Below, one piece after another: positions 4,444 to 62,066 of a stretch of 64,000 nucleotides of DNA. Where the stretch lies: NCBI GenBank assembly GCA_965208755.1, contig OZ242353.1:3866341-3930340 (forward strand), in the 5' to 3' direction. This DNA comes from Candidatus Multivorans sp. Its GTDB lineage: Bacteria > Acidobacteriota > Thermoanaerobaculia > Multivoradales > Multivoraceae. The position numbers and the translations under genes are program-made. The notes under the pieces are model-generated. The model was not told the DNA's origin, ran no database searches, and saw nothing but the letters and a program-made list of their open reading frames with translations. The first letter of the stretch is position 1; each line of letters starts with the position of its first letter.

Positions 4444-4497
4444 GGCTTCCTGCAGGAGACTAGCACTGGCCCGGACGCTAGAGTCCTCCGCGCGACC

Positions 4498-6972
4498 ATG
4501 ACTCCAACCGTCGTGCCAGGCCCTGTAGCGGAACCGGAGTTGCCGCGCCGCGCGAGCGTGATCGTGATCGGCGGTGGCGTGATCGGTTGCTCGGTCGCCT
4601 ACCACCTCGCACGCTCGGGGTGCTCCGATGTGCTGCTGCTCGAGCGCCGGCAGATCACTTCCGGCACCACCTGGCATGCCGCCGGCCTGCTCGGTCAGTT
4701 GCGGCAGTCGGTCACGATGACGAACCTCGCTCGCTACACGAGCGAGCTCTACGCCCGCCTCGAGCAGGAGACGGGACAGTCGACTGGCTATCGCCGCTGC
4801 GGCTCCTTCTCGGTCACCGCCGACCCCGAGCGGTTCGAGGAACTCAGGCGCGCGGCTTCACTGGCGAAGGTGCTCGGGCTGCCGGTCAATGTGGTGACGG
4901 CGAAGACGATCGGGGAGCGGGTGCCGCTGCTTGAGACGTCCGACCTGCTCGGCGGACTGCACATCCCCGGCGACGGCTACGCGAGTCCGACGGACGTCAC
5001 CCTGGCGCTGGCCGCGGGCGCCCGCTCCGCCGGCGCCCGGATCGTCGAGCAGGTGCCGGTGATCTCCGTTCGCACCGCCGGGGGACGCGTCATGGGCGTC
5101 GCGACGGAGCAGGGTGACGTCGATGCGGACTGCGTCGTCCTCTGCGCCGGCATGTGGACCCGGGAGCTGGCCGCATCGATCGGCGTCAACGTCCCGCTGC
5201 ACGCCTGCGAGCACTACTACGTGCGGTTCGACGATGTCGAGGGACTCGATGCGAACCTGCCCGTCGTGCGGGACTACGACGCCATCTCGTACTTCAGGTG
5301 CGACGCGGACAAGCTGATCGTCGGCGTCTTCGAGCCGAACGCGCGGCCCTGGGGCATGGACGGCATTCCCGAGGACTTCTGCTTCGACGAGATCGCCGCC
5401 AACCGCGAGCATTTCGAGCCGTTGCTCCGCGGCGCCAGGGAGCGGATGCCGGCACTCCAGTCGGCCGAGGTCCTGCAGCTCTTCTGCGGCCCGGAGAGCT
5501 TCACGCCGGACGTCCGCTACCACGTCGGCCCGGCCCCCGAGTGCGAGAACTGCTTCGTCGCGGCCGGCCTGAACTCGATCGGAATCCAGTCCGCGGGCGG
5601 GATCGGCAAGGTCGTTGCCGAGTGGATTCTCGAAGGGCATCCGCCGGCCGACCTCTGGGAAGCGGACGTGCGCCGCAACATGCCCTTCCAGGGCAACCGC
5701 AGGTACCTGCGCGAGCGGGTCTCCGAGAGTCTGGGCCTGCTCTACGCCATGCACTACCCGTATCGCCAGTTCGAGACGGCGAGGGGCGTGCGCCGGTCAC
5801 CGCTCTACGACCGGCTGGAGGCAGCCGGCGCCTGCCACGGGGAACTCGCCGGCTGGGAGCGCCCGAACTGGTTCGCGCCGGCCGGCGTGCCGGCCCGCTA
5901 CGAGTACAGCTACGGGCGCCAGAACTGGTTCGAGTACTCGGCCGCCGAACATCGGGCCGTGCGCGAAAACGTGGGACTGTTCGACCAGTCGTCGTTCGCG
6001 AAGTTCCGCCTGGAGGGCCGGGATGCGGCCAGGGTGCTCAACCGGGTCTGCGCCAACGACGTCGACGTGCCGCCCGGCCGCATCGTCTACACCCAATGGC
6101 TCAACGAGCGCGGCGGCATCGAGGCGGATCTCACGGTGACGCGCCTGGCGGAAGACAGTTTCCTCGTCGTCACCGCCGTCACCTCCGAGGTGCGGGACTT
6201 TCACTGGCTCAAGGGCCACACTCCGGACGACGCGCACTGCGTGTTGACGAACGTGACCTCGGCGATGGGCGTGATCTCCCTGATGGGCCCGGCTTCCCGC
6301 GCGCTGCTGCAGTCCCTCACGCCGGCGAACCTGGCCAACGAGGCGTTCCCGTTCGCGACCAGCCGCGAGATCGAACTGGGCTACGGCCTGGTTCGGGCAT
6401 CGCGCATCACCTACGTCGGCGAACTCGGCTGGGAGCTCTACGTTCCCACGGAGTTCGTGGCCGGCGTGTACGACGAGATCGTGGCTGCCGGCGAGGCCTT
6501 CGACCTCGTGCACGCCGGCTACCACGCCCTGGACTCGCTGCGCATCGAGAAGGCCTATCGCCACTGGGGCCACGACATCACCGATCAGGACTCGCCGCTC
6601 GAAGCGGGCCTCGGGTTCGCCGTCAGGTTCGGCAAGGCGGGCGGCTTCATCGGGCGCGAGGCGCTGCTCAGGGAGAAGGAGAGCGGCATCGCGAAGCGCC
6701 TGATCCAGTTCAGGCTCCGGGATCCGCGGCCGCTGCTCTACCACTACGAACCGATCTGGCTCGGGGACAAAATCGCGGGCTACGTCACTTCTGGGAACTA
6801 TGGCCACAGCCTCGGAGCGGCCGTCGGTCTCGGCTACGTCCCCATGTCGCTGTTGCCGGACTTCCCCAAACTGCCCGGTGGCTTCGAGATCGAGGTCGCG
6901 GGCGTTCGCGTCCCGGCCGAGGCTTCCCTCAGACCCATGTACGACCCTGGCGGCAAGCGCGTTCGCAACTGA
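4498..6972 (+). CDS. FAD-dependent oxidoreductase fused to a GcvT-like aminomethyltransferase domain (dimethylglycine/sarcosine dehydrogenase family)
   Basis: The start MTPTVVPG...VIVIGGGVIGCSVAYHL is a Rossmann FAD motif, followed by a C-terminal folate-binding GcvT-like domain. About 824 aa. The 1309-aa track ORF 3043-6972 is a run-on of this frame. Confidence 0.75.
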   Translation: MTPTVVPGPVAEPELPRRASVIVIGGGVIGCSVAYHLARSGCSDVLLLERRQITSGTTWHAAGLLGQLRQSVTMTNLARYTSELYARLEQETGQSTGYRRCGSFSVTADPERFEELRRAASLAKVLGLPVNVVTAKTIGERVPLLETSDLLGGLHIPGDGYASPTDVTLALAAGARSAGARIVEQVPVISVRTAGGRVMGVATEQGDVDADCVVLCAGMWTRELAASIGVNVPLHACEHYYVRFDDVEGLDANLPVVRDYDAISYFRCDADKLIVGVFEPNARPWGMDGIPEDFCFDEIAANREHFEPLLRGARERMPALQSAEVLQLFCGPESFTPDVRYHVGPAPECENCFVAAGLNSIGIQSAGGIGKVVAEWILEGHPPADLWEADVRRNMPFQGNRRYLRERVSESLGLLYAMHYPYRQFETARGVRRSPLYDRLEAAGACHGELAGWERPNWFAPAGVPARYEYSYGRQNWFEYSAAEHRAVRENVGLFDQSSFAKFRLEGRDAARVLNRVCANDVDVPPGRIVYTQWLNERGGIEADLTVTRLAEDSFLVVTAVTSEVRDFHWLKGHTPDDAHCVLTNVTSAMGVISLMGPASRALLQSLTPANLANEAFPFATSREIELGYGLVRASRITYVGELGWELYVPTEFVAGVYDEIVAAGEAFDLVHAGYHALDSLRIEKAYRHWGHDITDQDSPLEAGLGFAVRFGKAGGFIGREALLREKESGIAKRLIQFRLRDPRPLLYHYEPIWLGDKIAGYVTSGNYGHSLGAAVGLGYVPMSLLPDFPKLPGGFEIEVAGVRVPAEASLRPMYDPGGKRVRN

Positions 6973-10785: not shown

Positions 10786-12001
10786 CTGCCTCCTCTGCGC
10801 TGCATGCGAGGTGGAGACCTTCCTCGACCTCGGCAGCACAGCGCTCGCCAACAAGTTCCCCAGCGCTGAAGGCCTGAGCCGGCCCGAACCGCGCTTCCCG
10901 CTCCGCGTCGGCTTCTGCCACGCCTGCGGACACGTCCAGCTTGTGGAGCGCGTGCCTCCCGCCGCGATGTTCACGGACTACCTCTACGTGTCGTCCGCCT
11001 CCGACACGCTGCGGGCCCACTTCGACGACCTGGCGGCCACGCTGACTGCCAGGCATGACCTCGCCGACGGCGGCCTGGTCATCGACATCGGCTGCAACGA
11101 CGCGTCGCTCCTCTGCTGCTTCCGCGACCGCGGCGCCCGGATCCTGGGCGTCGATCCGGCCGAGAACCTGGTCGAGTACAGCCGCGACACCGGGATCGAG
11201 CGCTACCGGGGGTTTTTCGGCGCCGACACCTCTGGCGAGATCGCGGCCCGCTGGGGCCGGGCGGCGCTGGTCACCGCGACGAACACGTTCCCGCATGTAC
11301 CCGACCTCTCAGGCTTCGTCGCCGGCCTCGACGCGGTCCTCGCGCCCGGCGGCGCCTTCGTTCTCGAGGCGCACTACCTGGTCGACCTGCTCGACCAGCT
11401 CGCGTTCGACACGGTGTACCACGAGCACGTCTCCTACTGGGCGCTGGGTCCGATGAAGCGGCTCTTCGAGGACCACGGCATGGAAGTCGTGCGGGCGGAG
11501 CGGCTGCCGATCCACCATGGCCAGCTCCGTGCCACCGTGATGCGCCGCGGCGAGGGCGAGGTGGACAGCAGCGTCGCCGAGGTCCTGACCGCCGAGACTC
11601 AGCTCGGCATCGACCGGTTCGACACCTGGCGCGCGTTCGCCGGGCGGGTCGGGCGGTTGAAGGCGGAGGTCATGGACTGCCTCAACGGCCTCAAGGCGGA
11701 CGGCGGGCGCCTCGCCGGCTATGGCGCTCCCGCCAAGGGCAGCACGCTGCTCGAGTTCTTCGGCGTGGGCCCGGACCTGCTCGACTTCATTGCCGACCGG
11801 AGCCCGCTCAAGCAGGGCCGCTACACCCCGGGCTCCCATATTCCGATCGTCGCGCCGGAGCGGCTCCTGGAGGAGCCTTCGCCCGACCACGTGCTGCTCC
11901 TGGCCTGGAACTTCGAAGAGGAAATCCTCGCCCAGCAGGCCGAGTTCCGCCGCCGCGGCGGCAGGTTCATCCTACCGGTGCCGGAAGTGCGGATCGTCTG
12001 A
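10778..12001 (+). CDS. SAM-dependent sugar C-methyltransferase (TylC3/NovU-like; N-terminal putative Zn-binding domain, class I MTase, C-methyltransferase C-terminal domain)
   Basis: N-terminal Cys cluster CLLCAAC...CHACGHV, a methyltransferase core DIGCNDASLL, about 407 aa. Start overlaps the kinase stop. Confidence 0.7.
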   Translation: MASCLLCAACEVETFLDLGSTALANKFPSAEGLSRPEPRFPLRVGFCHACGHVQLVERVPPAAMFTDYLYVSSASDTLRAHFDDLAATLTARHDLADGGLVIDIGCNDASLLCCFRDRGARILGVDPAENLVEYSRDTGIERYRGFFGADTSGEIAARWGRAALVTATNTFPHVPDLSGFVAGLDAVLAPGGAFVLEAHYLVDLLDQLAFDTVYHEHVSYWALGPMKRLFEDHGMEVVRAERLPIHHGQLRATVMRRGEGEVDSSVAEVLTAETQLGIDRFDTWRAFAGRVGRLKAEVMDCLNGLKADGGRLAGYGAPAKGSTLLEFFGVGPDLLDFIADRSPLKQGRYTPGSHIPIVAPERLLEEPSPDHVLLLAWNFEEEILAQQAEFRRRGGRFILPVPEVRIV

Positions 12002-51688: not shown

Positions 51689-52729
51689 ATGAGGACGAAA
51701 CACACTGCTGTCAGTCTGTTCTCCGGAGCTGGCGGCATGGACATCGGAGTCGACCGAGCCGGATTCAAGACGGTTTGCGGGATTGACCTCGATCCTCACT
51801 GTGCAAACACACTCCGCCGTAACGGTCGCGGCAAGACAGTGTGGAACGCCGATGTTCGGATAGTCGATCCTGACCGTCTCCGAGATGCCCTCGGCATGAA
51901 GAGAGGCGATTTGCGGCTCCTTCATGGCGGGCCGCCGTGCCAGCCGTTCAGTCAGATAGGCAAACGCGCCGGCATTAGTGACCCGAGAGGCGCGCTCGTC
52001 TTTGAGATGGCGAGGTTCGCCGAAGCGCTTCGCCCGACGGCGGTGATGATCGAACAGGTCGCCTACTTTCTCCGTGCGAGAATGCCGGATGGCAGGCCGG
52101 TATCAGAGGCGCTGGCCGAGGAGTTTCGCCGCTTGGGCTACGACATGTTTGTGCGTGTTCTCGACGCGAGCCAGTATGGTCTCCCGCAACGGAGGCAACG
52201 GGCTATCCTGGTATGCGTGCCGAGGGGGCAGCACTTCTGGTTCCCGCAGGGCAAAGGTGAATCCAAGACCGTCGGAGCCGCATTGCGTGGTCTTCCGGAG
52301 CCGGTTCGTCGCGGCGAGAAGCCAGCCCTGCCGAACCATGTCGACGTTACGCCAGACCGAGACCGGGAACGCATCTCATACGTGCCTGAAGGACTGTGGT
52401 TGTCCAAGTGCAAGGACGTTCCGCCGCAGATCATGCAGCGGCTCACCCGTAAGGACACCACGAAGTTCCGTCGGCTTGATCGAGCTTCGCTCGCGCCGAC
52501 TCTTCGGTGCGGTGAGGCTCCCTATCACCCGATCGCGGACCGGTACATCACACCGCGGGAGGCGGCACGGCTACAGAGCTTCCCGGACTCTCACGTCTTC
52601 ACTGGCCCGATTCGAGGTCGCAGCGGAAGTGTGCGGGACCTCGATCAGCATCGCCAAGTGGCGAATGCGGTGCCGCCGTTGCTCGCCCGCGTGGTAGCGA
52701 ACCAGCTGTCTGAGACGCTATGCCTGTAG
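51689..52729 (+). CDS. DNA (cytosine-5)-methyltransferase
   Basis: Motif I LFSGAGG, motif IV GGPPCQPFS, motif VI EQV. Confidence 0.85.
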   Translation: MRTKHTAVSLFSGAGGMDIGVDRAGFKTVCGIDLDPHCANTLRRNGRGKTVWNADVRIVDPDRLRDALGMKRGDLRLLHGGPPCQPFSQIGKRAGISDPRGALVFEMARFAEALRPTAVMIEQVAYFLRARMPDGRPVSEALAEEFRRLGYDMFVRVLDASQYGLPQRRQRAILVCVPRGQHFWFPQGKGESKTVGAALRGLPEPVRRGEKPALPNHVDVTPDRDRERISYVPEGLWLSKCKDVPPQIMQRLTRKDTTKFRRLDRASLAPTLRCGEAPYHPIADRYITPREAARLQSFPDSHVFTGPIRGRSGSVRDLDQHRQVANAVPPLLARVVANQLSETLCL

Positions 52730-53682
52730 TTGCGGAACTGTACGGGCAGACCCTCGACGACCGCATTGATCCCAGCCTTTGCCGAACCGCTCAGTGCCCG
52801 TTCATTGGGGCGATTTGCGATGGTGGGGGAAACCGCGATATGGCGCGAGTCAGCGCCTCGGATTTAACGCTTGGCCACCTTTTCTCACGCTCGGTGGGGC
52901 AGGAGACCGAGGGCTGGTTGCCGTGCGGCGTCTGCTCCGTGCGCACTAGCAGCAACAAGGCCTGGGCAATCTGTCCTCATCGCCTGTTTGGCTTCGGTCC
53001 GAACGGTGTATCTCCCAGGCACCGTGATCTGGCTCAGCGGGTGTTTCGCCTCGCGGGCTTCGAGCCAGGCCAACTGGTAGGCGTCTGGCCGGAGATCACC
53101 CTGTCTGAGATAGGTGAAGGCGGCCAGCAGTTCAGGTACCGACTGGACTACGTTCTTCGGGCCATGGACGCTGCTTCGTCGCCGCCGATTATCGTTGAAG
53201 TCATGACGTGCTCGACATCGGGGGGCAAGAAAGCAAAGGGCACAGACATTCAGGCGGCTTTCAAGCGCGCCGTACTGTTCGCTCACACGCCCGCAAAGGA
53301 GGAAGTGGCATCTCCTGGCGTCAACCTGCGGCAAGTTTGGGCGCGGATGGCTTCTCAACTCGTGGCTAAGTCCGAAGCCGCGAACAGCTGGGGCGGCCGG
53401 ACCATCTGGATCGTGCAGGACCTGCTCGCCGACTACATTCGCACACAAACCGCTCTACCGTTGGATGATCTGCACTCCGACGACTGGTCGCCTCACGAGG
53501 TCAACATGGTGGTGGCCGATCTGGATGGGCCAGTGGCTCTTTACGCGGGACCCATCCGTTCTCAGAACGGAGACCGGCGCTGCTGGCTTGAGATCCTCGG
53601 CGCTCCTCATCTCCCTTCTCTCGCGTCCATGACTAGGAAGTTGAACGACGTTCAGCCGTTAGCGGTCGTCGCGGCCCTCTAG
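52720..53682 (+). CDS. NotI-family type II restriction endonuclease
   Basis: N-terminal Cys cluster and WAICPHRLFGFGPNG block aligned by eye to NotI (TGTCPF...C...GVCVVN...WLVCPNR...LFGYGP). Start overlaps the MTase stop by 10 nt. Confidence 0.65.
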   Translation: MPVVAELYGQTLDDRIDPSLCRTAQCPFIGAICDGGGNRDMARVSASDLTLGHLFSRSVGQETEGWLPCGVCSVRTSSNKAWAICPHRLFGFGPNGVSPRHRDLAQRVFRLAGFEPGQLVGVWPEITLSEIGEGGQQFRYRLDYVLRAMDAASSPPIIVEVMTCSTSGGKKAKGTDIQAAFKRAVLFAHTPAKEEVASPGVNLRQVWARMASQLVAKSEAANSWGGRTIWIVQDLLADYIRTQTALPLDDLHSDDWSPHEVNMVVADLDGPVALYAGPIRSQNGDRRCWLEILGAPHLPSLASMTRKLNDVQPLAVVAAL

Positions 53683-53693
53683 GGAAGGCGACC

Positions 53694-54107
53694 ATGGTTG
53701 ACACCGTGTCTCGGGAACGCCGGAGCGAGATTATGGCCCTCGTCAGGTCGAAGGACATGAAGCCCGAGATGGCGGTGCGCCGGATCACTCATGCGATGGG
53801 CTACCGCTACAGGCTTCACCGGAAGGAACTGCCAGGAAGGCCGGATCTGGTGTTTCCGGCCCGCAGCAAGGTGATCTTCGTTCACGGTTGTTTCTGGCAC
53901 CAGCACTCACCTTGCAAGAATGTGCGAGAACCGAAGTCGAACCGAGACTACTGGCTCCCGAAGCTCAGACGGAACGTCGAGCGAGATGTGGAGAACCAAG
54001 CGCGGTTGTCCGAGATCGGTTGGCGAGCGTTGGTCCTGTGGGAGTGCGAGGTGCGAAGTCGGAACGATACAGCCCACCGCATCCGAGAGTTCTTGGAGCG
54101 TCCATGA
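53694..54107 (+). CDS. vsr: Very-short-patch repair endonuclease
   Basis: LVRSKDMKPEMAVRR...FVHGCFWHQHSPCK...WECE, canonical Vsr. Confidence 0.85.
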   Translation: MVDTVSRERRSEIMALVRSKDMKPEMAVRRITHAMGYRYRLHRKELPGRPDLVFPARSKVIFVHGCFWHQHSPCKNVREPKSNRDYWLPKLRRNVERDVENQARLSEIGWRALVLWECEVRSRNDTAHRIREFLERP

Positions 54108-54622: not shown

Positions 54623-54721
54623 GCCCGCCTGGCTGGCTTCCGATGCAGGCCCACGGCGTCCCGTGACCGGGGACCGGAGGAGAGGGTTGGCGCCGGGCCT
54701 TGTTGGTCGCCATGCACAGTG

Positions 54722-54925
54722 GGCACGAAACGCCCCGCCTATTCGCCGAGCGCCGGGAGCGACCCGGCGCCTGGTGTCGACTGTTGTATTCGGCAGGAGA
54801 CCCGGCTCGCAGGCCCACGGCGCGACGACAACCAACCACGAGAAGCTACCGCGCCGCCGATTGCGCGTCAAACGAACCGGCCAGCGGTCGGGCAGGGGCC
54901 GAGACGGATGCCGAGGTGAGACTAG
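54722..54925. repeat. ~190-bp repeat family copy A, ending in a truncated 3-codon ORF with RBS
   Basis: Shares GGGAGCGACCC...GGCAGG..CCGGCTCGCAGGCCCAC.GCGC..GACGAC.AACCAACGAG...GAGACGATG with copy B at 58975-59165. About 70-75% identity over 150+ nt. Confidence 0.55.
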
Positions 54926-54942: not shown

Positions 54943-55641
54943 TCAGGGGAGGGCGGCCGTCGCCGCCGCGACCATCAAGCCCGCCAGACCGATCTCCAGC
55001 ACCTTTCCCGCGGCCCAGTTGATCGCGGCGATAGCGAACCCCGCCGGCCTGGACAGCCGGAACACGGCGGCAGCGCCCAGGCCGAGCAGAAGAAAGGACC
55101 AGACGAAGACGAAGGAGCTGACCATCAGGTCGAGAATGGCGCCGGGCGCGATGGCGGCCACGACCGCCAGCGCGTCCAGCCCTGAGCCCGCTTCTCTGTT
55201 CAGGACGTTCCGTTGAAACTCAAGGAGGCCGCCGACCTGGGTGGTTCTCAAGGCCGAGCGGACCACTAGCCCCACGGCGCTGATCAGGCTGACGTGGAGC
55301 GCCAGCGACAGGCACTGTTCGATGCTCGCCCGACCCTTCAGGGCCGCCGCCAGGAGCCGGAGCACGACGGTCTCGAACAACAGCGCGAGCGGGATGGCCG
55401 CGAGGAAGAACGAGACCATCCCGTATGGAATCTCGAGAGAGTCACCGATGCTCTCCATCGCATCGCCGAACCACCAGGCAGTCAGCAGACCGGCCAGGAG
55501 CACCAGGAAGATGCCCAATGCCAGGCCTGCGCCCCACGGATGGTGCTCGCGGATGACGACGAAGCTCTTCCGCGGAGCGGTGAAGATCCAGATCAGGGCT
55601 TTGAACCAGAGGTGACGGCTGGCCTCCGGTCGCTCGCCCAT
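54943..55641 (-). CDS. Yip1-like polytopic membrane protein
   Basis: N-terminus WFKALIWIFTAPRKSF then about 5 TM helices. Paralog of 55687-56466 (NAWLKALIGIFTSPRQSFEII). Confidence 0.55.
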   Translation of the reverse strand: MGERPEASRHLWFKALIWIFTAPRKSFVVIREHHPWGAGLALGIFLVLLAGLLTAWWFGDAMESIGDSLEIPYGMVSFFLAAIPLALLFETVVLRLLAAALKGRASIEQCLSLALHVSLISAVGLVVRSALRTTQVGGLLEFQRNVLNREAGSGLDALAVVAAIAPGAILDLMVSSFVFVWSFLLLGLGAAAVFRLSRPAGFAIAAINWAAGKVLEIGLAGLMVAAATAALP

Positions 55642-55686: not shown

Positions 55687-56466
55687 TCAGGTCGGCATGA
55701 GTCGGGCTGCCAGGCCAATCGTCGCGGCCGCGAAGGCCGTCGTCGTTGCCCAGTAGATGGCGGCCAGCAGCCAGGCCTTGCGCTGTGGGACCTCGAACGC
55801 CGCGGCGGCGCCTAGGGCGAGCAACGCGAGAAACCAGACCGTGAACGGATTGATGCTCGCGTAAACGACGTTGAGCGTCGCGTTGTCGCCGGCCAGCAGC
55901 AGGTCGAGTCCCATCGGCGCCTGGAGGTCCAGTTGCGATCGGATCGCGTCGGTGCCACGGACGTGGAGGAGAAGGAAGTTGGCCCAGCTCTTGAGGTGGG
56001 TGATCACGGCCAGATGGACCATCAGGGAGAGGGACTGGACAAATCGGGGCCGTCCCTTGAGTGCTACCGCCAACAGCCACACGAAGACGGTCTGAACCGC
56101 GAGTCCGAGGGCCAGTTGCAGGGGTCCGGTGGCCATCGAAACCCATCTCGCCGCCGCGGCCGTCTGCTCGATCTGCGCCATCATGGCGTCGACCTGTTCC
56201 GGGTTGCCCGGCATCCGCTCCGTCAACTGGTTCCGCATCGCCTGGAGACCCAGAGGCGCCGAGGACATCGCCAGGGCGGCGCTTCCGGCTACGAGAAGAA
56301 GCAGCGGCGCGAGCCATGGGTTGCGGCGCCGGATGATCTCGAAACTCTGCCGCGGCGACGTGAAGATCCCGATGAGCGCCTTGAGCCAGGCGTTCCGGCC
56401 CTGTGAGTGGTCGCCGGTGGCTTTGATGTTGCGTTCGTCGTGGATGCTGCCTGCGTGCTCGGTCAT
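55687..56466 (-). CDS. Yip1-like polytopic membrane protein
   Basis: Internal Met start MTEHAGS at 56466 in an ATGA overlap with the ABC ATPase stop. The track ORF extends to 56604 inside the ATPase gene. Confidence 0.55.
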   Translation of the reverse strand: MTEHAGSIHDERNIKATGDHSQGRNAWLKALIGIFTSPRQSFEIIRRRNPWLAPLLLLVAGSAALAMSSAPLGLQAMRNQLTERMPGNPEQVDAMMAQIEQTAAAARWVSMATGPLQLALGLAVQTVFVWLLAVALKGRPRFVQSLSLMVHLAVITHLKSWANFLLLHVRGTDAIRSQLDLQAPMGLDLLLAGDNATLNVVYASINPFTVWFLALLALGAAAAFEVPQRKAWLLAAIYWATTTAFAAATIGLAARLMPT

Positions 56467-57248
56467 GTCGCGCTCCTGTTGCCGATCCAGGAGAGGCGGG
56501 AGAACCTCTCGCGCCTGGAGATACTGAGAATGAGGTTCTCGAGCCGCCCGGCGCCGTCTTCTCCCTCGGCGGCTGGCAGTTCGCGGAACTCCTCCCGGGA
56601 GCACGACAGGAGGACCTTGCCGTCCCTGATGACGGCGATGTGGGTCGACACGCGCTCGACGTAGTCGAGCATGTGGGAAGTGAGGAAGACGGCTGCGCCC
56701 TGCTCCGCCATCTGCTGCAGGATCGACATGACGGTCCGGGCGCTCAGGGCGTCCATACCCTCGAACGGCTCGTCGAGGAACAGGACCCGCGGCGCGTGAA
56801 GCGTCGCTGCCGCGAGGCGGATCTTCTTCCTCATCCCGTGCGAGTAGGTCGTGATCGGCCGTTTGGCTGCGCCTTCGAGGTCGAAGACCGAGAGCGCTTC
56901 GTCGGTCCGCTGCCCGGCGTCCTCGCGGCTCAGGCCGTAGATGCGGGCATAGGAGAGCAGCAGCTCTTCGCCGGTCAGGCTCTCGAACATCACGCTGTGG
57001 TCGGGGACGATGCCGAGTTGTTGCTTGAGTTCCGTGTCGTTGATGTCCATCGGCCTGCCCAGCAGGCGGACCGTGCCGCTCGTGGGATTGAGCACCCCGG
57101 TCAGCATGGACCAGGTCGTCGTCTTTCCGGCCCCGTTGGGACCGACGAAGCCCAGGATCTGTCCCTCCCGGACGTCCAGGTCGACGCCGTCGACGACGAC
57201 GTTGCCTCCGTACGACCGGGTCAGGTTCTCTGCCTTGATTACTTCCAT
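56463..57248 (-). CDS. ABC transporter ATP-binding protein
   Basis: Walker A GPNGAGKTT, signature-like YSHGMRKK, Walker B VLFLDEP. Confidence 0.85.
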   Translation of the reverse strand: MEVIKAENLTRSYGGNVVVDGVDLDVREGQILGFVGPNGAGKTTTWSMLTGVLNPTSGTVRLLGRPMDINDTELKQQLGIVPDHSVMFESLTGEELLLSYARIYGLSREDAGQRTDEALSVFDLEGAAKRPITTYSHGMRKKIRLAAATLHAPRVLFLDEPFEGMDALSARTVMSILQQMAEQGAAVFLTSHMLDYVERVSTHIAVIRDGKVLLSCSREEFRELPAAEGEDGAGRLENLILSISRRERFSRLSWIGNRSAT

Positions 57249-57300: not shown

Positions 57301-58887
57301 CTAGTGGGAGGAGTCCTTGAGCAGGAGTTCGCGGCCGCGGGCCGCCAGCATCCGTCTCTGCCTTTGGCGAGACGCGTAGGCGGCCGCTGCGGCGAGGAGG
57401 AGTACGCCGACCGCGATGAGCGCGGCTGTCAGCGGCGTCACGCGCTGGCGTTCCAGGAACGCCCAGAGGAGAAAGGAGAGGGCGCCCGGCAGGCCGACGA
57501 GGTGTGCGGCCACCAGGGTGGCGCCGAGCCTGGCGCCGTCGGGATCGTGCAGGAACCCCTCGTTGCGTTGAGGCCAGCGAAGCTGAATCAGGCCGTACGT
57601 TGCGGTGGCCATGAGGAATCCCGCGAGCATCAGGCAGACGGCGACGAAGAAGAACGGCCAGCCGAACCACTCAAGCGGCGTCAGTCCCAGGATGAACGCG
57701 ATGACGAAGACGATGACCGCGTTCATCGCACGGCCGGGTGCGCTGAAGATCCGCCGGACCGGGAACGGCAGCGTTAGCGACTCCCGCCATACGTGGCAGG
57801 TCGGGGGCTGCTTTCCGATGCGGAACTCGTGCAGAAAGATGGCGAAGAGAGCCGCCGGCCCTACCGCGAAGCCGCCTGCGGTGGGCACCAGGACGAGGGA
57901 GGTGCCCAAGACCAACGCGAGAACCAGACGTGCCGGTTTGAGACGCAGGAGGCACTCGCTCTCGACCAGCGTCAGGACGCCCGCCGGAGTGAGATGCTTC
58001 GCCTTGCGGAGCAGCCGGGCCACCGGCAGGCTCCCGGAAGCCGCGCGCCGGTCGCCGCCAGGACGCTCCAGGTAGCCGCGGAGCAGCAGCCGGTTCTCCA
58101 GTACGACCAGGGCGCCGAGAATCGCGAACAGGCTGCCGAGTCTCGCCAGATTCGACGCCGAAAGCCCCGGTTGGTGGACGATGCCGGCGACCAGCCCGGG
58201 CGGCGTGTAGCCGAGCCCGCCGAGAACGGCCGACTCCTCGATCGCCCGAGTGAGCCCTTCGGAAGCGATCTCTCCGCCGAAGGCCAGCACCCCGAGCATG
58301 ATCGCGCCCTGGCACGCGGCAATGATCGCCACGATGGCCAGGGCGCCGAGCTTGCCTTCGACCGGCCGGTTGACGAGAAGCGACAGGATCGCCGCGGTAC
58401 GGCCGAAGATCCACACCAGGCCCAGGATGGCGAGCAGGGTGATCGGCGCTCCGCTGACGCCTCCCGATCTCATGACGGCGAGGTAGACGCCGGCGGGACC
58501 GAGGACGGGGAGCCAGTACCCGATCGTGCTCAGGGCAAACCGGAGACCGTAGAGGTCCCGGAAGCTGACTGGCAGCCGCAGCAGATCCTCCAGGTCGAGC
58601 AGAAAGATCACGGGCGCTCGAAGCAGCACCTGGGCGAGCAACGCGACCGCCGTCACGGAACAGGCGATCAGGCTCAGGAGGTTTCTCCGCAGGACCTCGC
58701 TCTCGATGGCGAAGATCGCCGGAAGCAGCCCCAGGGTCGCGACAGTCGCGAACGCGAGGAACAGGACGGCAACGAAGATCGCCACCGCCAGCGGCTGCTT
58801 GCTCCGCCGGACCGCGTCCGGCAAGGCCAGCCGCGCGAGCGTCAGCAGCAGATCGGCCCGGCTACCCGGGTGCGTGAACGTCGCCAT
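57301..58887 (-). CDS. Large polytopic membrane protein, putative ABC-2-type permease partner
   Basis: 528 aa with at least 12 hydrophobic segments. Lies directly upstream of the ABC ATPase on the same strand. Confidence 0.55.
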   Translation of the reverse strand: MATFTHPGSRADLLLTLARLALPDAVRRSKQPLAVAIFVAVLFLAFATVATLGLLPAIFAIESEVLRRNLLSLIACSVTAVALLAQVLLRAPVIFLLDLEDLLRLPVSFRDLYGLRFALSTIGYWLPVLGPAGVYLAVMRSGGVSGAPITLLAILGLVWIFGRTAAILSLLVNRPVEGKLGALAIVAIIAACQGAIMLGVLAFGGEIASEGLTRAIEESAVLGGLGYTPPGLVAGIVHQPGLSASNLARLGSLFAILGALVVLENRLLLRGYLERPGGDRRAASGSLPVARLLRKAKHLTPAGVLTLVESECLLRLKPARLVLALVLGTSLVLVPTAGGFAVGPAALFAIFLHEFRIGKQPPTCHVWRESLTLPFPVRRIFSAPGRAMNAVIVFVIAFILGLTPLEWFGWPFFFVAVCLMLAGFLMATATYGLIQLRWPQRNEGFLHDPDGARLGATLVAAHLVGLPGALSFLLWAFLERQRVTPLTAALIAVGVLLLAAAAAYASRQRQRRMLAARGRELLLKDSSH

Positions 58888-58974
58888 CGAGTCCTGGGTG
58901 TCGTTCTAGCCGGCTCTGAGGAAAGGTGGGCCGGCACCTGGACTGGTGGCGGGCCGAATCGGCCGCTCTGCGCA

Positions 58975-59165
58975 GGAGAAACGAGACCCCCCGCCGACTT
59001 GCCTGACGCAGGGAGCGACCCTGAGCCCAGGGGCGACGGCTAGGTCTGGCAGGGGGTCCGGCTCGCAGGCCCACTGCGCCTCTGACGACCAACGAGTGGA
59101 CGCTAGCGCGCCGGGATAGCGCCCGTCAAACATCTCTGCGGGGAGGAGAGACGATGGCAACGAAG
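58975..59165. repeat. ~190-bp repeat family copy B, ending in RBS+ATG of a 31-codon ORF (59154-59249, +)
   Basis: See copy A. Ends GGGGAGGAGAGACGATG. Confidence 0.55.
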
Positions 59166-59262: not shown

Positions 59263-59550
59263 CTACTTGCAGAAGACCAACGCAACAGGTGCGTACGCTC
59301 CGATAATGGCGGCCCCGACACCGCCGGTGGCGGCGCCGGTTCCCATGGCAACGAAGCTGAAGGCGAGCACCGCGCCGACGCAGCTCCAGTTCGTTCCGCC
59401 GGTTGCCGTCGCGAGCAACGCTTCCCCGGTCTGCTCGGCCTCGACGGGGATGCTGGCCGTCGGGACGGCGGGTCCACTGGCGCCCGTGGCCGGGGCCAGA
59501 GCGAACAGAAACGTGAGAAGGAGGGTTGCGGCTACTGCTTTCTTGGACAT
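59263..59550 (-). CDS. Small secreted peptide with a double-glycine-like motif and a Gly-rich two-Cys C-terminus (bacteriocin-like precursor)
   Basis: N-terminus MSKKAVAATLLLTFLFALAPATGASG is Sec-like. An internal VEAEQTGEALLATATGG|TNWSC... resembles a GG-leader. A GTG start at VEAEQ would give an 18-aa GG-leader. Core TNWSCVGAVLAFSFVAMGTGAATGGVGAAIIGAYAPVALVFCK has 2 Cys. Confidence 0.5.
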   Translation of the reverse strand: MSKKAVAATLLLTFLFALAPATGASGPAVPTASIPVEAEQTGEALLATATGGTNWSCVGAVLAFSFVAMGTGAATGGVGAAIIGAYAPVALVFCK

Positions 59551-59619: not shown

Positions 59620-59979
59620 TCAGAAGAACATGGCGCAGGCCATGCCGGCGCCTGCCAGCGCCAGACCAGGGCCTGCACCGACGCCGGTCAACGCGAGAGC
59701 GAAGCCAGCGCCAGTGGCGGCTCCGCACAGGAAGTCGGAAGTGGGGCCTGCCCCTGCTGTTCGAGCCAGAACCCGGTCGGACAGGGACTGCGGCCCGAGG
59801 CCGGGGGCAGGCTGGAGGGCGGACACGTCTGGGGCCGGGGTTGGGACCGGCCCGAGATCCCAGGTGGCCCTCAGCGTGGCCGCGCCTGGGTCCTGCGCCT
59901 CGCCGGCGGTTGGTGTCGCCATAGCGGCGCCGGCAAGGAACAGGAAGAGGACGGAAAGAAAGGCAATGCGTAGTTTCAT
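59620..59979 (-). CDS. Small secreted peptide, leader-conserved paralog 1 (Gly/Ala-rich hydrophobic two-Cys core)
   Basis: MKLRIAFLSVLFLFLAGAAMATPTAGEA...ATWDLGPV is a conserved leader. Core ...SDFLCGAATGAGFALALTGVGAGPGLALAGAGMACAMFF. RBS AAGGAGCC. Confidence 0.5.
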   Translation of the reverse strand: MKLRIAFLSVLFLFLAGAAMATPTAGEAQDPGAATLRATWDLGPVPTPAPDVSALQPAPGLGPQSLSDRVLARTAGAGPTSDFLCGAATGAGFALALTGVGAGPGLALAGAGMACAMFF

Positions 59980-60043
59980 CGAGAGTTGGCTCCTTCGAGG
60001 TCTATTGGGTTGTGCGTGAGACGGACGCGTAGTTCGCTGTGGC

Positions 60044-60217
60044 TCAGACGGGGAAGTAGCAGGTAAGGGCGATCAGGCCGCCCAGGCCGGGAGCGATGGT
60101 GTCGACCATTGCCGCTACCACCATGCAAGCCCAGGAGACGGCCCAGCCGGACCCGCCGGTGACCGTCGCCAGGCCTGCCTCGGGCAGGTTCGCAATCAGG
60201 ATTGAAGTGGCGTTCAT
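60044..60217 (-). CDS. Double-glycine-leader bacteriocin-like precursor peptide, 57 aa (not in the ORF track)
   Basis: Hand translation: MNATSILIANLPEAGLATVTGG|SGWAVSWACMVVAAMVDTIAPGLGGLIALTCYFPV. RBS AAGGAGA 6 nt upstream of the ATG at 60217. Leader fits the L..E.L..V.GG consensus. Core is Gly-rich with 2 Cys. Confidence 0.6.
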   Translation of the reverse strand: MNATSILIANLPEAGLATVTGGSGWAVSWACMVVAAMVDTIAPGLGGLIALTCYFPV

Positions 60218-60257
60218 TTCGCGTCTCCTTGAGGCTCTTGGTTGTCAGGGCACGGCA

Positions 60258-60569
60258 CTAGAAGAGGATGGGAGGAAGGCACTTGTCGGGACCGGGCCAC
60301 GGGCTCGGGAACGGCCAAGGAACCGGGAAGGGGCGGGGCGAGGGAGGAAAGGGAAAGCTGTCGCAGGGCCAGGGGTAGTACACAGCCGTCCGTGTCGGCG
60401 CATCCGTCCGAAGGACGTAGCCGTCGGGGGCGGCAACCGGCCCGAGATCCCAAGCGGCCACCAGCGAGATGTCGTCCGGGCCCCGCGCCTCGCCGGCGGT
60501 CGGCGTCGCCATGGCCGCGCCGGTGAGAAACAGGAAGAGGAGGGAAAGGAAGGTAGTGCGTAGTTTCAT
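60258..60569 (-). CDS. Small secreted peptide, leader-conserved paralog 2 (Pro/Trp/Phe-rich two-Cys core)
   Basis: MKLRTTFLSLLFLFLTGAAMATPTAGEA...AAWDLGPV leader is near-identical to paralog 1, including about 50 nt upstream. Core YYPWPCDSFPFPPSPRPFPVPWPFPSPWPGPDKCLPPILF. ATGA overlap with the C39 gene stop. Confidence 0.5.
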   Translation of the reverse strand: MKLRTTFLSLLFLFLTGAAMATPTAGEARGPDDISLVAAWDLGPVAAPDGYVLRTDAPTRTAVYYPWPCDSFPFPPSPRPFPVPWPFPSPWPGPDKCLPPILF

Positions 60570-61186
60570 TGAGAGCTATCTCCTTCAAGGGTTGTGGGTT
60601 GGGGTGAAACGGACGGCATCGTGGCCGTCCGGGAAATCGGTGGCGGGCCGCTGGTGAAGGACAGAACGACGCCGTCCCAGGATCGTTCGAAGGTCCTGGA
60701 ACTCATGCGCAGCCGCCCGAGGGAGGGGTCGTCGATGACGAGTTCGTCGCCGGCGCTGCGAATGACGACGAAGTGATCGCCGTGCACGTGCGCGATCGCG
60801 GGGAGCGGGATGTCGTGGAGCCGCTGGACCGGTAGCCGGAGGCCCTGGCTCGTCACGCCTCGCTTTTCCGCGGCCTTCTTGAGCGCGAGCAGGCTGGTGC
60901 CGTCCGGGCCGGTTCCGGTGGCGAGCTCGAGCTCGGCGAGGGTCGTATCCTGGATGCCCCAGTGATCGAGGACCATCTTCAGGGCCGCCGGGCCGCAGTC
61001 GGCGCGTCTCTGCTGGCGAACGATCTCGCCTGGGGCCGGCGCCGATGGGTCGAGCGTGGCGGCCCAGGCCAGCCGGTCCATGGTCGGCCCCAGGGCCCGG
61101 GCCGCGACCGTCACGAGACCGGCCGCGAGCAGCAGACCGGCAGCGGCCGCGTGCGGTGGGCGAATCCGGAATCGCTCAGAGTGCAT
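60566..61186 (-). CDS. Standalone peptidase C39 (bacteriocin-processing cysteine peptidase) domain protein with an N-terminal TM or signal anchor
   Basis: Internal Met start MHSERFRIRPPHAAAAGLLLAAGLVTVAARALG. QQRRADCGPAALKMVLDHWG (catalytic Cys) ... LPAIAHVHGDHFVVI (catalytic His). No ABC domains are fused. The track ORF extends to 61336 overlapping the upstream gene. Confidence 0.7.
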   Translation of the reverse strand: MHSERFRIRPPHAAAAGLLLAAGLVTVAARALGPTMDRLAWAATLDPSAPAPGEIVRQQRRADCGPAALKMVLDHWGIQDTTLAELELATGTGPDGTSLLALKKAAEKRGVTSQGLRLPVQRLHDIPLPAIAHVHGDHFVVIRSAGDELVIDDPSLGRLRMSSRTFERSWDGVVLSFTSGPPPISRTATMPSVSPQPTTLEGDSSQ

Positions 61187-61682
61187 CGCCGCCGGATTCC
61201 AGAAAGGAGCGCCAGGCGATCTCTGGACGCTCTCCGGTGGTGACCGCGAGGATCCGGGACTGGCCGTCGACCAGGAACACCAGCGGTACATGGACGACGC
61301 CGAATCGCTTCGAGACGGCGCCGTCCGGATCGGCAATGGCCGCGTGGACGCCGTCGCCGTCGAGTTCGGGCGAATCCGAGCCGGCGACGACCGCGATCAG
61401 GTCGAAGGTCGGACCCTCCGTCCGTGCCATGCGGCGCAGGGCGGTGATGGTGCGGTCGCAGTTGCCGCAGCCGGCCCTGGCGAAGGTCACGACCCGCAGC
61501 CGGCCGGGAGCGGCCGGCAGGGCTTCACCGTCCGCGAGGCCCGGCAGCGCGGGGAACAGCGCGCCGACTTCGGGGCGCTGGGCCTGCCGCGCGCGGATCC
61601 CGGATTCGAACCAGATCAGACCTCCGAAGGGGGCGAGGACGGCCACGACGACGGTGGCGATGGCAAGTCGGCGGCGGTTCAT
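61176..61682 (-). CDS. Membrane-anchored thioredoxin-fold thiol-disulfide oxidoreductase (TlpA/ResA-like, CxxC)
   Basis: Internal Met start MNRRRLAIATVVVAVLAPF (TM anchor). CGNC active-site motif in ARAGCGNCDRT. Overlaps the C39 gene by 11 nt. Confidence 0.65.
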   Translation of the reverse strand: MNRRRLAIATVVVAVLAPFGGLIWFESGIRARQAQRPEVGALFPALPGLADGEALPAAPGRLRVVTFARAGCGNCDRTITALRRMARTEGPTFDLIAVVAGSDSPELDGDGVHAAIADPDGAVSKRFGVVHVPLVFLVDGQSRILAVTTGERPEIAWRSFLESGGDAL

Positions 61683-62028: not shown

Positions 62029-62066
62029 AAGGGCCTTCGGAACCCGTAACGGTTCCGAAGGCCCTT
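62029..62066 (-). terminator. Rho-independent terminator downstream of the SNF2 helicase gene
   Basis: Perfect 16-bp stem AAGGGCCTTCGGAACC / GGTTCCGAAGGCCCTT with a 6-nt loop. On the minus strand it is followed by UUUUGCGUCUU. Confidence 0.6.

Follow-up and report, generated by a model that had tools for sequence, protein, structure and literature searches.

A 57-codon gene beside a stand-alone C39 peptidase in Candidatus Multivorans: a candidate double-glycine-leader precursor of a bacteriocin-type peptide

Candidatus Multivorans sp. (Acidobacteriota) carries, on contig OZ242353.1 of assembly GCA_965208755.1, a 57-codon minus-strand gene whose product we modestly favor as the precursor of a small membrane-active peptide of bacteriocin type, which would be matured and secreted by way of an operon encoding a thiol-disulfide oxidoreductase (TDOR), a stand-alone C39 peptidase and ABC proteins. 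We analyzed a 64,000-nucleotide (nt) stretch (positions 3,866,341 to 3,930,340; the window), whose coordinates are used throughout. The parts of this reading differ in strength. It is very probable that the open reading frame (ORF) is a genuine gene, and fairly probable that its 57-amino-acid (57-aa) product is a double-glycine-leader precursor served by the adjacent C39 peptidase. A membrane-active, bacteriocin-like role with ABC and Yip1-family proteins providing immunity is the best-supported function, an inferential one that we regard as evenly balanced; antimicrobial activity of the product is predicted from its gene context.

The gene and its immediate parts are as follows.

60044..60217, minus strand: putative 57-aa precursor peptide gene, with leader codons 1–22 at 60152..60217
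60047..60151, minus strand: core codons 23–57 of the same gene; the stop codon is at 60044..60046
60224..60230, minus strand: ribosome-binding site (RBS) AAGGAGA, separated from the ATG by CGCGAA (6 nt)

Translated from its ATG, the ORF at 60044..60217 gives MNATSILIANLPEAGLATVTGGSGWAVSWACMVVAAMVDTIAPGLGGLIALTCYFPV, letter for letter the peptide proposed in an earlier sequence-only reading of this DNA, and the AAGGAGA RBS that the same reading placed 6 nt before the start is present at 60230..60224. A longer N-terminus is ruled out because an in-frame TGA lies 30 nt upstream, at 60247..60245. The window is 68% GC and rich in spurious ORFs (the ORF list holds dozens of similar size), so the ORF alone proves nothing. 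The GC contents of its three codon positions, 0.59, 0.57 and 0.83 in order, follow what real genes of the window show. Among 5.8 billion proteins searched, an identical one was present in NCBI and ENA records, along with 57-aa homologues at 81–86% identity, including MCY3592313.1, annotated as “hypothetical protein, Acidobacteria bacterium”. Standard pipelines therefore do call the gene, and the expectation that it would go unannotated did not hold. A profile built from the peptide alignment recovered three new relatives among 1.84 billion representative proteins, P0097 (57 aa), P0099 (58 aa) and P0100 (68 aa), and no further credible one, so the family is narrow; two additional matches were discarded as spurious, being long proteins with many matched stretches. 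Altogether about eight distinct intact homologues occur in related Acidobacteriota assemblies with constant gene order (P0002–P0006, P0097 and P0099 are intact at 57–58 aa). The four divergent DNA copies of the gene are free of indels and stops, and three of four homologous loci retain the RBS (L008 has AAAGAGA); neither the frameshift or stop nor the loss of ORF or RBS that the sequence-only reading had named as fatal was thus found. P0100 matches the peptide to residue ~41 and then continues into unrelated hydrophilic sequence.

Residues 1–22 form the putative leader, with hydrophobic residues V19, L16, L11 and I8 at −4, −7, −12 and −15 relative to the predicted cleavage site, E13 at −10 (P0099 has D at −8) and G21-G22 at −2/−1. 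Double-glycine leaders are ~15–30 aa long, end in GG, GA or GS, and share hydrophobic residues at −4/−7/−12/−15 and an acidic residue at about −8 to −10. The claim that the 22-aa leader fits this consensus is therefore upheld. The GG is unchanged in every homologue of the 57-aa peptide; across the ~8 homologues the string L-I-A-x-L-P-E-A-x-L-A-x-V-T-G-G is almost invariant, and its L-P-E-A-x-L-A-x-V-T-G-G portion fully so. Residues 23–57 form a 35-aa core that is hydrophobic, with one acidic and no basic residues, five Gly, two Cys and a central PGLG motif; both Cys and the PGLG are invariant across homologues. Of the earlier description of this core, the two Cys stand and “amphiphilic” does not, given one acidic residue, no basic residue and 5 Gly among 35 residues. 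The whole peptide lacks an N-terminal hydrophobic segment and any basic residue, and hydrophobic windows begin only at residue 24.

Leader and core diverge at very different rates. Ratios of nonsynonymous to synonymous substitution (dN/dS, Nei–Gojobori; four DNA copies, from the window, L001, L005 and L008) are 0.14–0.21 for the leader (codons 1–22), on par with the adjacent C39 gene (0.15–0.17), and 0.85–4.9 for the core (codons 23–57). Between the window and L001, the leader has five synonymous and two nonsynonymous differences and the core one and ten (P = 0.013, Fisher’s exact test). A leader under purifying selection attached to a core that changes mainly by amino-acid replacement supports a double-glycine precursor, as judged from these sequences, and agrees with the proposal that homologues should keep leader and GG while the core varies. 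Synonymous divergence is itself lower in the core (pS 0.02–0.11) than in the leader (0.10–0.26), and nonsynonymous divergence higher; diversifying selection, recent recombination or nucleotide-level constraint are possible causes of the low core value, which comes from small counts.

One could instead take the ORF for a decaying remnant of a signal-peptide-bearing paralogue, or for a chance ORF, in either case functionless. It lacks the signal peptide found in its neighbors (below), spurious ORFs are plentiful in the GC-rich window, P0100 appears frameshifted, and dN/dS over the whole gene is 0.45–0.79. Against this, the ORF is intact in ~8 distinct sequences with RBS and frame kept, its leader evolves at the rate of an enzyme gene (dN/dS 0.14–0.21), third-position GC is 0.83, and both Cys and PGLG are invariant, so that we consider loss or absence of function very improbable.

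Family searches place the peptide in no curated group. In Pfam and NCBIfam its best matches are ComC (14 bits, cut-off 20.4) and GRASP_targ_2 (13 bits, cut-off 32), and scans of 20 small peptides, including sister and distant ones, gave no above-threshold family; membership in a curated bacteriocin, microcin or pheromone family is thus not borne out. The sub-threshold matches to ComC, BlpC and TIGR04149, all families with GG leaders, sit exactly on the leader regions. PEP-CTERM and GlyGly-CTERM sorting signals were considered and excluded, there being no basic C-terminal cluster. The earlier proposal of a class II bacteriocin or microcin accordingly holds for the leader and for a cognate C39 peptidase; it does not hold for a curated family or, among the ORFs scanned between 34.2 and 64 kb, for the usual machinery, a C39-ABC fusion (peptidase-containing ATP-binding cassette transporter, PCAT).

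Two enzyme genes lie upstream.

60566..61186, minus strand: stand-alone C39 double-glycine peptidase, 206 aa (PF03412, 1.5e-31)
61176..61682, minus strand: membrane-anchored thioredoxin-fold TDOR, 168 aa (weak Redoxin/DsbE matches)

The C39 stop codon (60566..60568) is 349 nt upstream of the 57-aa gene, matching the ~350 nt reported before; its start was picked from homologue length and tblastn. Among 18 diverse homologues with identity down to 35%, the catalytic residues C64, H138 and D153 never vary, and at least 90% of the sequences have Q58. The protein’s profile matches LahT150 (6mpz, 1e-26) as well as PCAT1 and ComA, and an AlphaFold2 model (predicted local distance difference test, pLDDT, 81.5) superposes on LahT150 with a TM-score of 0.85 at 1.6 Å. 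Domain, fold and catalytic residues mark it as a true double-glycine protease. Nearly all of its 90 closest relatives are 115–256 aa proteins without a transporter domain, the exceptions being one redoxin fusion (P0089) and P0096, which has an ABC membrane domain. The TDOR has an N-terminal anchor, MNRRRLAIATVVVAVLAPFGGLIWF, and a CGNC motif; orthologues are 166–168 aa, and its relative in locus L093 matches StoA and ResA. A second stand-alone C39 paralogue (P0048, 207 aa, ~60% identical) is encoded on the same contig outside the window, so the source genome appears, from sequence, to hold a second locus of like kind.

Both enzymes are predicted to act in the periplasm, a placement drawn from sequence and analogy because of four features: a signal-like N-terminus on the C39 protein, an anchored redoxin partner, the P0089 fusion and the precedent of FapD. 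The C39 N-terminus reads MHSERFRIRPPH-AAAAGLLLAAGLVTVAA-RA/LG (here and below a slash marks the predicted cleavage site), by inspection a basic n-region, a 17-aa h-region and A-R-A/L; residues ~11–33 are the protein’s sole hydrophobic segment, and in every aligned family member an Arg-rich start leads into ~20 aa of hydrophobic sequence. DsbE, ResA and StoA, which the TDOR resembles, are extracytoplasmic oxidoreductases. In P0089 (locus L173) a transmembrane (TM) anchor, redoxin and C39 form a single polypeptide with no second membrane segment, so the redoxin and C39 catalytic domains share a compartment. FapD, a C39 protein carrying a Sec signal, works in the periplasm (PMC5557850). The same work describes the periplasmic C39 class as uncharacterized and the target of FapD as unclear (PMC5557850), and the FapD work was the sole result of a literature search on stand-alone or periplasmic C39 proteins combined with thioredoxin, a GG motif or a signal peptide.

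Three further small genes flank the 57-aa gene.

60258..60569, minus strand: 103-aa secreted Pro/Trp-rich protein, Sec-type signal peptide MKLR...AMA/TP, 2 Cys
59620..59979, minus strand: putative 119-aa precursor, with Sec-type signal peptide, spacer and leader ...SLSDRVLARTAGAG/ (...DRVLARTAGAG/)
59263..59550, minus strand: putative 95-aa precursor, with signal peptide, spacer and leader ...EALLATATGG/

The 119-aa product has a 41-aa core that is Gly/Ala-rich and hydrophobic with a Cys near each end, and the 95-aa product a 43-aa hydrophobic, Gly/Ala-rich core with Cys4 and Cys42. The leader and cleavage region of the 57-aa peptide, EAGLATVTGGSGWA, shares 9 of 14 positions with that of the 95-aa sister, EALLATATGGTNWS (pairwise BLASTP E = 6e-4), and by sequence the 57-aa peptide appears to belong to the substrate set that includes this sister. 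The 103-aa protein has no evident GG site. Secreted Pro/Trp/Phe-rich proteins with 2–4 Cys directly follow C39 in 9 of 11 distinct Acidobacteriota loci read (the exceptions being L089 and L091/L092), as at L001 7649–7960, L005 7625–7963 and L010 5612–6013 (for example ...YYPWPCDSFPFPPSPRPFPVPWPFPSPWPGPDKCLPPILF); a chaperone, a co-toxin or a receptor-binding part are candidate roles. As the sequence-only reading had it, the 57-aa gene sits between two paralogs conserved at their N-termini: the flanking MKLR... genes share a directly duplicated block of 164 nt (59837–60000 and 60427–60590, 80% identical) that spans the upstream region, RBS and part of the signal peptide of the 119-aa and 103-aa genes. 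This block looks like a reusable cassette of 5′ untranslated region and signal peptide joined to unrelated cores.

Comparable gene sets recur in other genomes. In the closer relatives, the sister leader is VTLAEVEAAQTVGG/EFTLTEC... at L001/L005, and sister leaders at L010–L014 are ILDALEMKAVSGTG/, LLDDVLLDVTRGG/ and TLDAITGA/. Farther away, L091/L092 (C39 57% identical) have leaders ELLSDADLLAVTGTG/ and ELLSEEDLALVVGG/, and L089 (C39 50% identical) has QLTDAELADITGRG/. At L016 (Poribacteria) a leader ending ...ARDIKGGG/ precedes a core without Cys, with CPBP/Rce1-like and Yip1 genes following. Among metagenomic contigs, L093 encodes a TM-redoxin and then a TM-C39 together with LSSQEMQSLVGG/WCVCINFWIFQVC..., and L096 two peptides with signal peptide and GG leader, while L173, the locus of the fused redoxin-C39, has the leader IEDTHLQQIVGG/, an acidic soluble core with two Cys, and then Yip1. 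The predicted distant substrates mostly consist of a Sec signal peptide, a spacer, a canonical GG leader and a core that usually has 2–4 Cys. As read from sequence, then, this is a recurrent module: a TM-anchored TDOR; a C39 protein with signal or TM segment; one to four precursors with signal peptide, GG leader and core; and ABC-2, Yip1 or CPBP genes. Gene sizes at the P0081 locus fit the same layout (178 aa, C39, 86 aa, 84 aa, 498 aa, ABC ATPase). We found no curated family for, and no description in the searchable literature of, a TDOR-C39-precursor module. Ordinary PCAT fusions, which were set aside, make up L017–L088, where only L061 (stand-alone) and L057 (a 356-aa ORF) differ, as well as most of L093–L172; no obvious precursor lies near the stand-alone C39 of L061 (Bacteroidota), and L094, L095 and L098 are too short or have no precursor.

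The module of L091/L092 (redoxin, C39, GG peptides, permease, Yip1 and ABC genes) lies between a tyrosine integrase (4296–5237) and an ISL3 transposase fragment (10799–11011); these flanks, together with the Poribacteria locus L016, suggest horizontal mobility of the module. At L009, the closest genome found (C39 97% identical), the position of the 57-aa gene is occupied by an unrelated 61-aa peptide (4596–4781), MKNHLLAAIANTSVADSTLQEAVGG/VNIACLNTALSQMLVCLGPSECFYYVNYALLAVCLL, with the leader STLQEAVGG/, a hydrophobic core with four Cys and no signal peptide. This suggests cassette replacement in the peptide slot. Since the 61-aa peptide likewise lacks a signal, signal-less GG peptides are a recurring, selected component.

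These comparisons bear on two alternatives that would remove the 57-aa peptide from the substrates of the local C39. The first is that it stays uncleaved as a small membrane protein, for instance an immunity or decoy peptide against the neighboring secreted peptides. This idea is motivated by gallocin, where GIP, a hairpin-like immunity peptide encoded beside GllA1/2, mimics the bacteriocin hairpin (PMC10100652); moreover, the 57-aa peptide has no signal peptide and essentially one hydrophobic segment, and its gene lies directly downstream of a secreted-peptide gene, the usual position for class II immunity. Yet conservation is strongest in the hydrophilic leader, which has a perfect GG and matches the region around the cleavage site of a sister precursor, and not in the membrane segment. 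In addition, the slot at L009 holds another signal-less GG-leader peptide, and the operon already has immunity-type ABC and Yip1 genes. We regard this alternative as improbable.

In the second alternative the 57-aa product would be a classical class II peptide that undergoes cytoplasmic cleavage and leaves through a PCAT whose gene lies at another place in the 5-Mb genome, and the local C39 would act on the Sec-dependent sisters only. The leader fits the PCAT substrate consensus, the peptide is Sec-less as PCAT substrates are, and other Acidobacteriota genomes often encode C39-ABC fusions of the PCAT type (L023, L025). However, Pfam showed no C39-ABC fusion, membrane-fusion protein or TolC among the ORFs scanned between 34.2 and 64 kb, and in every locus read the peptide gene accompanies a stand-alone C39 and TDOR operon. 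This, too, is quite unlikely in our estimation, and we return to the 57-aa peptide as a precursor for the adjacent C39.

The arrangement of these genes indicates one operon comprising the TDOR, the C39 peptidase, four small precursor genes, an ABC-2-like permease, an ABC ATPase and Yip1/YknW-like proteins. An 11-nt overlap joins the TDOR gene to that of C39, the stop of the latter overlaps the start of the 103-aa gene (ATGA), and the peptide genes are 40–70 nt apart, hence a single operon. Loci L001–L008 share the order SNF2 helicase, redoxin, C39, 103/112-aa, 57-aa, 110/119-aa and 95/104-aa genes, followed by one or two membrane proteins of ~530–560 aa, an ABC ATPase and Yip1. A promoter and terminator scan gave one informative site, a terminator-like sequence at 62031–62045, after the helicase gene. 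Downstream of the peptides are the following genes.

57301..58887, minus strand: 528-aa polytopic membrane protein whose model resembles ABC-2/ABCG transmembrane domains
56463..57248, minus strand: ABC ATPase of the DrrA/lantibiotic-protection/PmtA-like (ABC-2) type (DrrA 5e-64, lantibiotic protection 1e-41, PmtA 1.7e-31)
55687..56466, minus strand: Yip1/YknW-like membrane protein, 259 aa (Pfam Yip1 1.2e-12; 88% identical to the L001 orthologue)
54943..55641, minus strand: second, divergent Yip1-like membrane protein, 232 aa (Pfam/NCBIfam and comparison with L001)

The 528-aa protein has no family match in Pfam or NCBIfam; going by its structural model it is probably a tandem ABC-2 (type V) permease that partners the adjacent ATPase. 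The match of the ATPase to the PmtA model (1.7e-31) is under that model’s cut-off. Both Yip1 proteins exceed the Pfam Yip1 threshold, and their NCBIfam YknW_fam scores (71.9 and 29.1 bits) are under the cut-off of 110; the start of the 259-aa protein was set by orthologue length. No gene for a YknX-type membrane-fusion protein or a MacB/FtsX-type permease could be assigned at the locus with Pfam and NCBIfam. The operon has only TDOR, C39, small peptides and transporter/Yip1 genes, with no modifying enzymes for ribosomally synthesized and post-translationally modified peptides (LanM/LanBC, radical SAM, YcaO, etc.), and a disulfide is the only modification suggested for its peptides. Permease number (one or two) and the set of peptide cores vary between close relatives, which fits a toxin-immunity reading without proving it.

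The peptides might also be processed as proposed and be non-toxic, acting as signaling, structural or membrane components comparable to Fap, with the ABC and Yip1 proteins serving export or housekeeping. FapD, the only characterized periplasmic C39, acts in fiber biogenesis; NCBIfam gives weak matches to FapD and to the pilus-associated FilB; and the cores are extremely hydrophobic and uncharged, their toxicity being predicted only. Speaking against such roles, the locus has no Fap-like genes or amyloid repeats, and the FapD match reaches 44.3 bits where the cut-off is 330. The cores are hypervariable, differing in number among close relatives and in chemistry from locus to locus (Gly-rich hydrophobic, Cys-rich, acidic soluble), which is typical of conflict systems, and the modules are linked to immunity-type genes (Yip1/YknW, ABC-2, CPBP) and at one locus to an integrase and a transposase fragment. 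A non-toxic role is therefore unlikely by our assessment, and a bacteriocin-like one is developed below.

Under the bacteriocin-type reading, maturation would run in four steps. First, the precursors would arrive at the periplasmic side of the inner membrane, with Sec signal peptides taking the three sisters there. Another route is needed for the 57-aa peptide, which has no such signal: it might insert by itself or by a YidC-type pathway with its uncharged or acidic N-tail outside, leave by the operon’s ABC-2 exporter, much as phenol-soluble modulins leave by Pmt, or, as a third option, be processed by a PCAT encoded elsewhere. Insertion with a short uncharged or acidic N-tail is the mode of Pf3-coat-type proteins. 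The secreted or anchored C39 would then cut after Gly22, and the TDOR would form a Cys31–Cys53 disulfide, giving, by analogy with gallocin A, a 35-aa stapled helical hairpin. Finally, the ABC and Yip1 proteins would expel the peptide and protect the producer. Cleavage site, disulfide, toxicity, immunity role and the 57-aa export route are all predicted here. We advance only tentatively, as a little short of even, the broader proposal of an undescribed two-step maturation in which export comes first (by Sec signal, insertion or ABC-2) and is followed by periplasmic leader removal by C39 and stapling by the TDOR. This route may span Acidobacteriota, Poribacteria and unassigned environmental contigs.

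Several points weigh against this reading. The 57-aa peptide has neither Sec signal nor basic residues, which leaves its access to a periplasmic peptidase unexplained, and the periplasmic location itself comes from sequence inspection, a gene fusion and analogy. No outer-membrane export component is encoded at the locus, so release from a diderm cell is likewise unexplained, and the permease assignment draws on a low-confidence model (pLDDT 58). The peptide matches no curated bacteriocin family (e.g., PF10439 Bacteriocin_IIc, PF03047 ComC or the NCBIfam bacteriocin and microcin models), and its expression, cleavage and activity are predicted from sequence alone. The divergence data are four closely related DNA copies with small counts, and the low synonymous rate in the core (pS 0.02–0.11 vs. 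0.10–0.26 in the leader) lacks an explanation. P0100 looks, from its sequence, like a frameshifted copy, which would be either a pseudogene or an assembly error.

GG leaders are the textbook mark of cytoplasmic cleavage and PCAT export, and mining rules such as those of BAGEL and antiSMASH build on this connection. Here textbook GG leaders occur together with an apparently secreted C39, a dedicated TDOR and, mostly, an upstream Sec signal. If the proposal is right, its peptides would be the first clear natural substrates for the periplasmic C39 class that includes FapD, and the substrate logic of these peptidases, open since FapD, would become testable. It would also reveal a hypervariable family of disulfide-stapled hydrophobic peptides in uncultured bacteria that current mining rules overlook, and a compact protease and oxidoreductase pair for extracytoplasmic peptide processing. 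The 57-aa gene is one modest member of this set, and its Sec-less state makes it an informative exception.

Among the known systems that we compared, the closest in proposed function is gallocin A, a class IIb bacteriocin. Gallocin A (GllA1/GllA2) of Streptococcus gallolyticus has a 23-aa GG leader and mature peptides of 42 and 60 aa with few charges, whose two Cys are joined by a disulfide, the probable staple of a helical hairpin; activity needs the disulfide and a thioredoxin-like surface protein (PMC10100652). Shared with the window are a leader of ~22–23 aa, low-charge cores of ~35–60 aa with two Cys, genes side by side and a thioredoxin-like extracytoplasmic protein, and by this analogy the 35-aa core, with two Cys, a central PGLG and one charge, fits a gallocin-like hairpin. 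Gallocin A peptides differ in being PF10439 members from a Gram-positive cell, where the PCAT BlpAB handles both cleavage and export, whereas the window system has no PF10439 match, no PCAT found and, in a diderm, a stand-alone signal-bearing C39 whose sister substrates carry an extra Sec signal. The 57-aa system thus resembles a class IIb disulfide-hairpin bacteriocin that would mature by a different, apparently undescribed route.

Class II microcins (e.g., MccV) and the substrates of LahT, ComA and PCATs have the same leader positions, and the window peptidase has the fold and catalytic residues of LahT150, ComA-PEP and PCAT1; microcins, in contrast, use a C39-ABC fusion with membrane-fusion protein and TolC and are cleaved in the cytoplasm, while an extracytoplasmic location is predicted for the window C39. 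Like the window protein, FapD, from the Fap amyloid system of Pseudomonas, is a stand-alone C39; it has a Sec signal and a periplasmic location (PMC5557850), both of which are predicted by inspection for the window protein. It differs in that no fap genes (fapABCEF partners or amyloid-repeat substrates) occur at the locus and NF058616 (FapD) scores 44.3 bits against 330; furthermore, Fap proteins lack GG leaders, whereas the candidate substrates in the window carry textbook ones.

For the remaining genes, likenesses are partial. PedC is a putative oxidoreductase that improves the potency of pediocin (PMC4919988). Like PedC/PapC, which improve disulfide formation, the TDOR is a dedicated thioredoxin-fold protein encoded with putative bacteriocin genes; PedC works with the PCAT PedD, whereas the TDOR gene overlaps that of C39 by 11 nt and is fused to it in a relative. 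YknWXYZ protects Bacillus subtilis against SDP, a 42-aa disulfide toxin, and so offers a parallel of a hydrophobic one-disulfide toxin with protection by an ABC transporter that needs the Yip1-family protein YknW (PMC4887032). It differs in SdpAB maturation and in a MacB/FtsX-type permease with membrane-fusion protein, the window permease being ABC-2-like without such a partner. SDP is matured after export. PmtCD exports phenol-soluble modulins (PSMs) and gives the producer immunity (PMC12623860). PmtABCD is thus alike in ABC-2-type export of small hydrophobic peptides and producer protection, with the window ATPase matching PmtA below cut-off; PSMs are leaderless and undergo no C39 processing, and the relation is one of analogy only. 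Nor are PSMs known to be matured by removal of a Sec signal peptide.

Between the last peptide gene and the permease gene we also found a conserved non-coding element.

58909..59125, minus strand: conserved non-coding element, ~245 nt, with a multi-helix core at 58950..59125 and a hairpin at 58909..58935

It also occurs in L001–L013, 84–94% identical even where the C39 protein is only 69–79% identical, and may be more constrained than the neighboring coding sequence, nucleotide and amino-acid identities not being directly comparable. A diverged second copy (71%) lies at ~54688..54873 on the minus strand, after the Yip1 genes. RNAalifold predicts a long-range multi-helix fold on the gene-sense strand, with 99% of cells paired vs. 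44–50% in slid controls; 20 pairs vary on one side only, all GC/GU or AU/GU, and one is compensatory. Rfam gave nothing credible in 53.5–62.2 kb, element included. On this sequence evidence the element is a candidate regulatory or structured RNA that may or may not belong to the peptide system.

Beyond the operon, the plus strand at 51689..54107 encodes a C-5 cytosine methyltransferase (51689–52729), a 320-aa ORF (52720–53682), possibly a restriction endonuclease, and a Vsr mismatch endonuclease (53694–54107). Together with the second Yip1 gene, these genes separate the first Yip1 gene from a 366-aa gene that adjoins it in L001, and the block at 51689..54107 looks like an inserted restriction-modification cassette.

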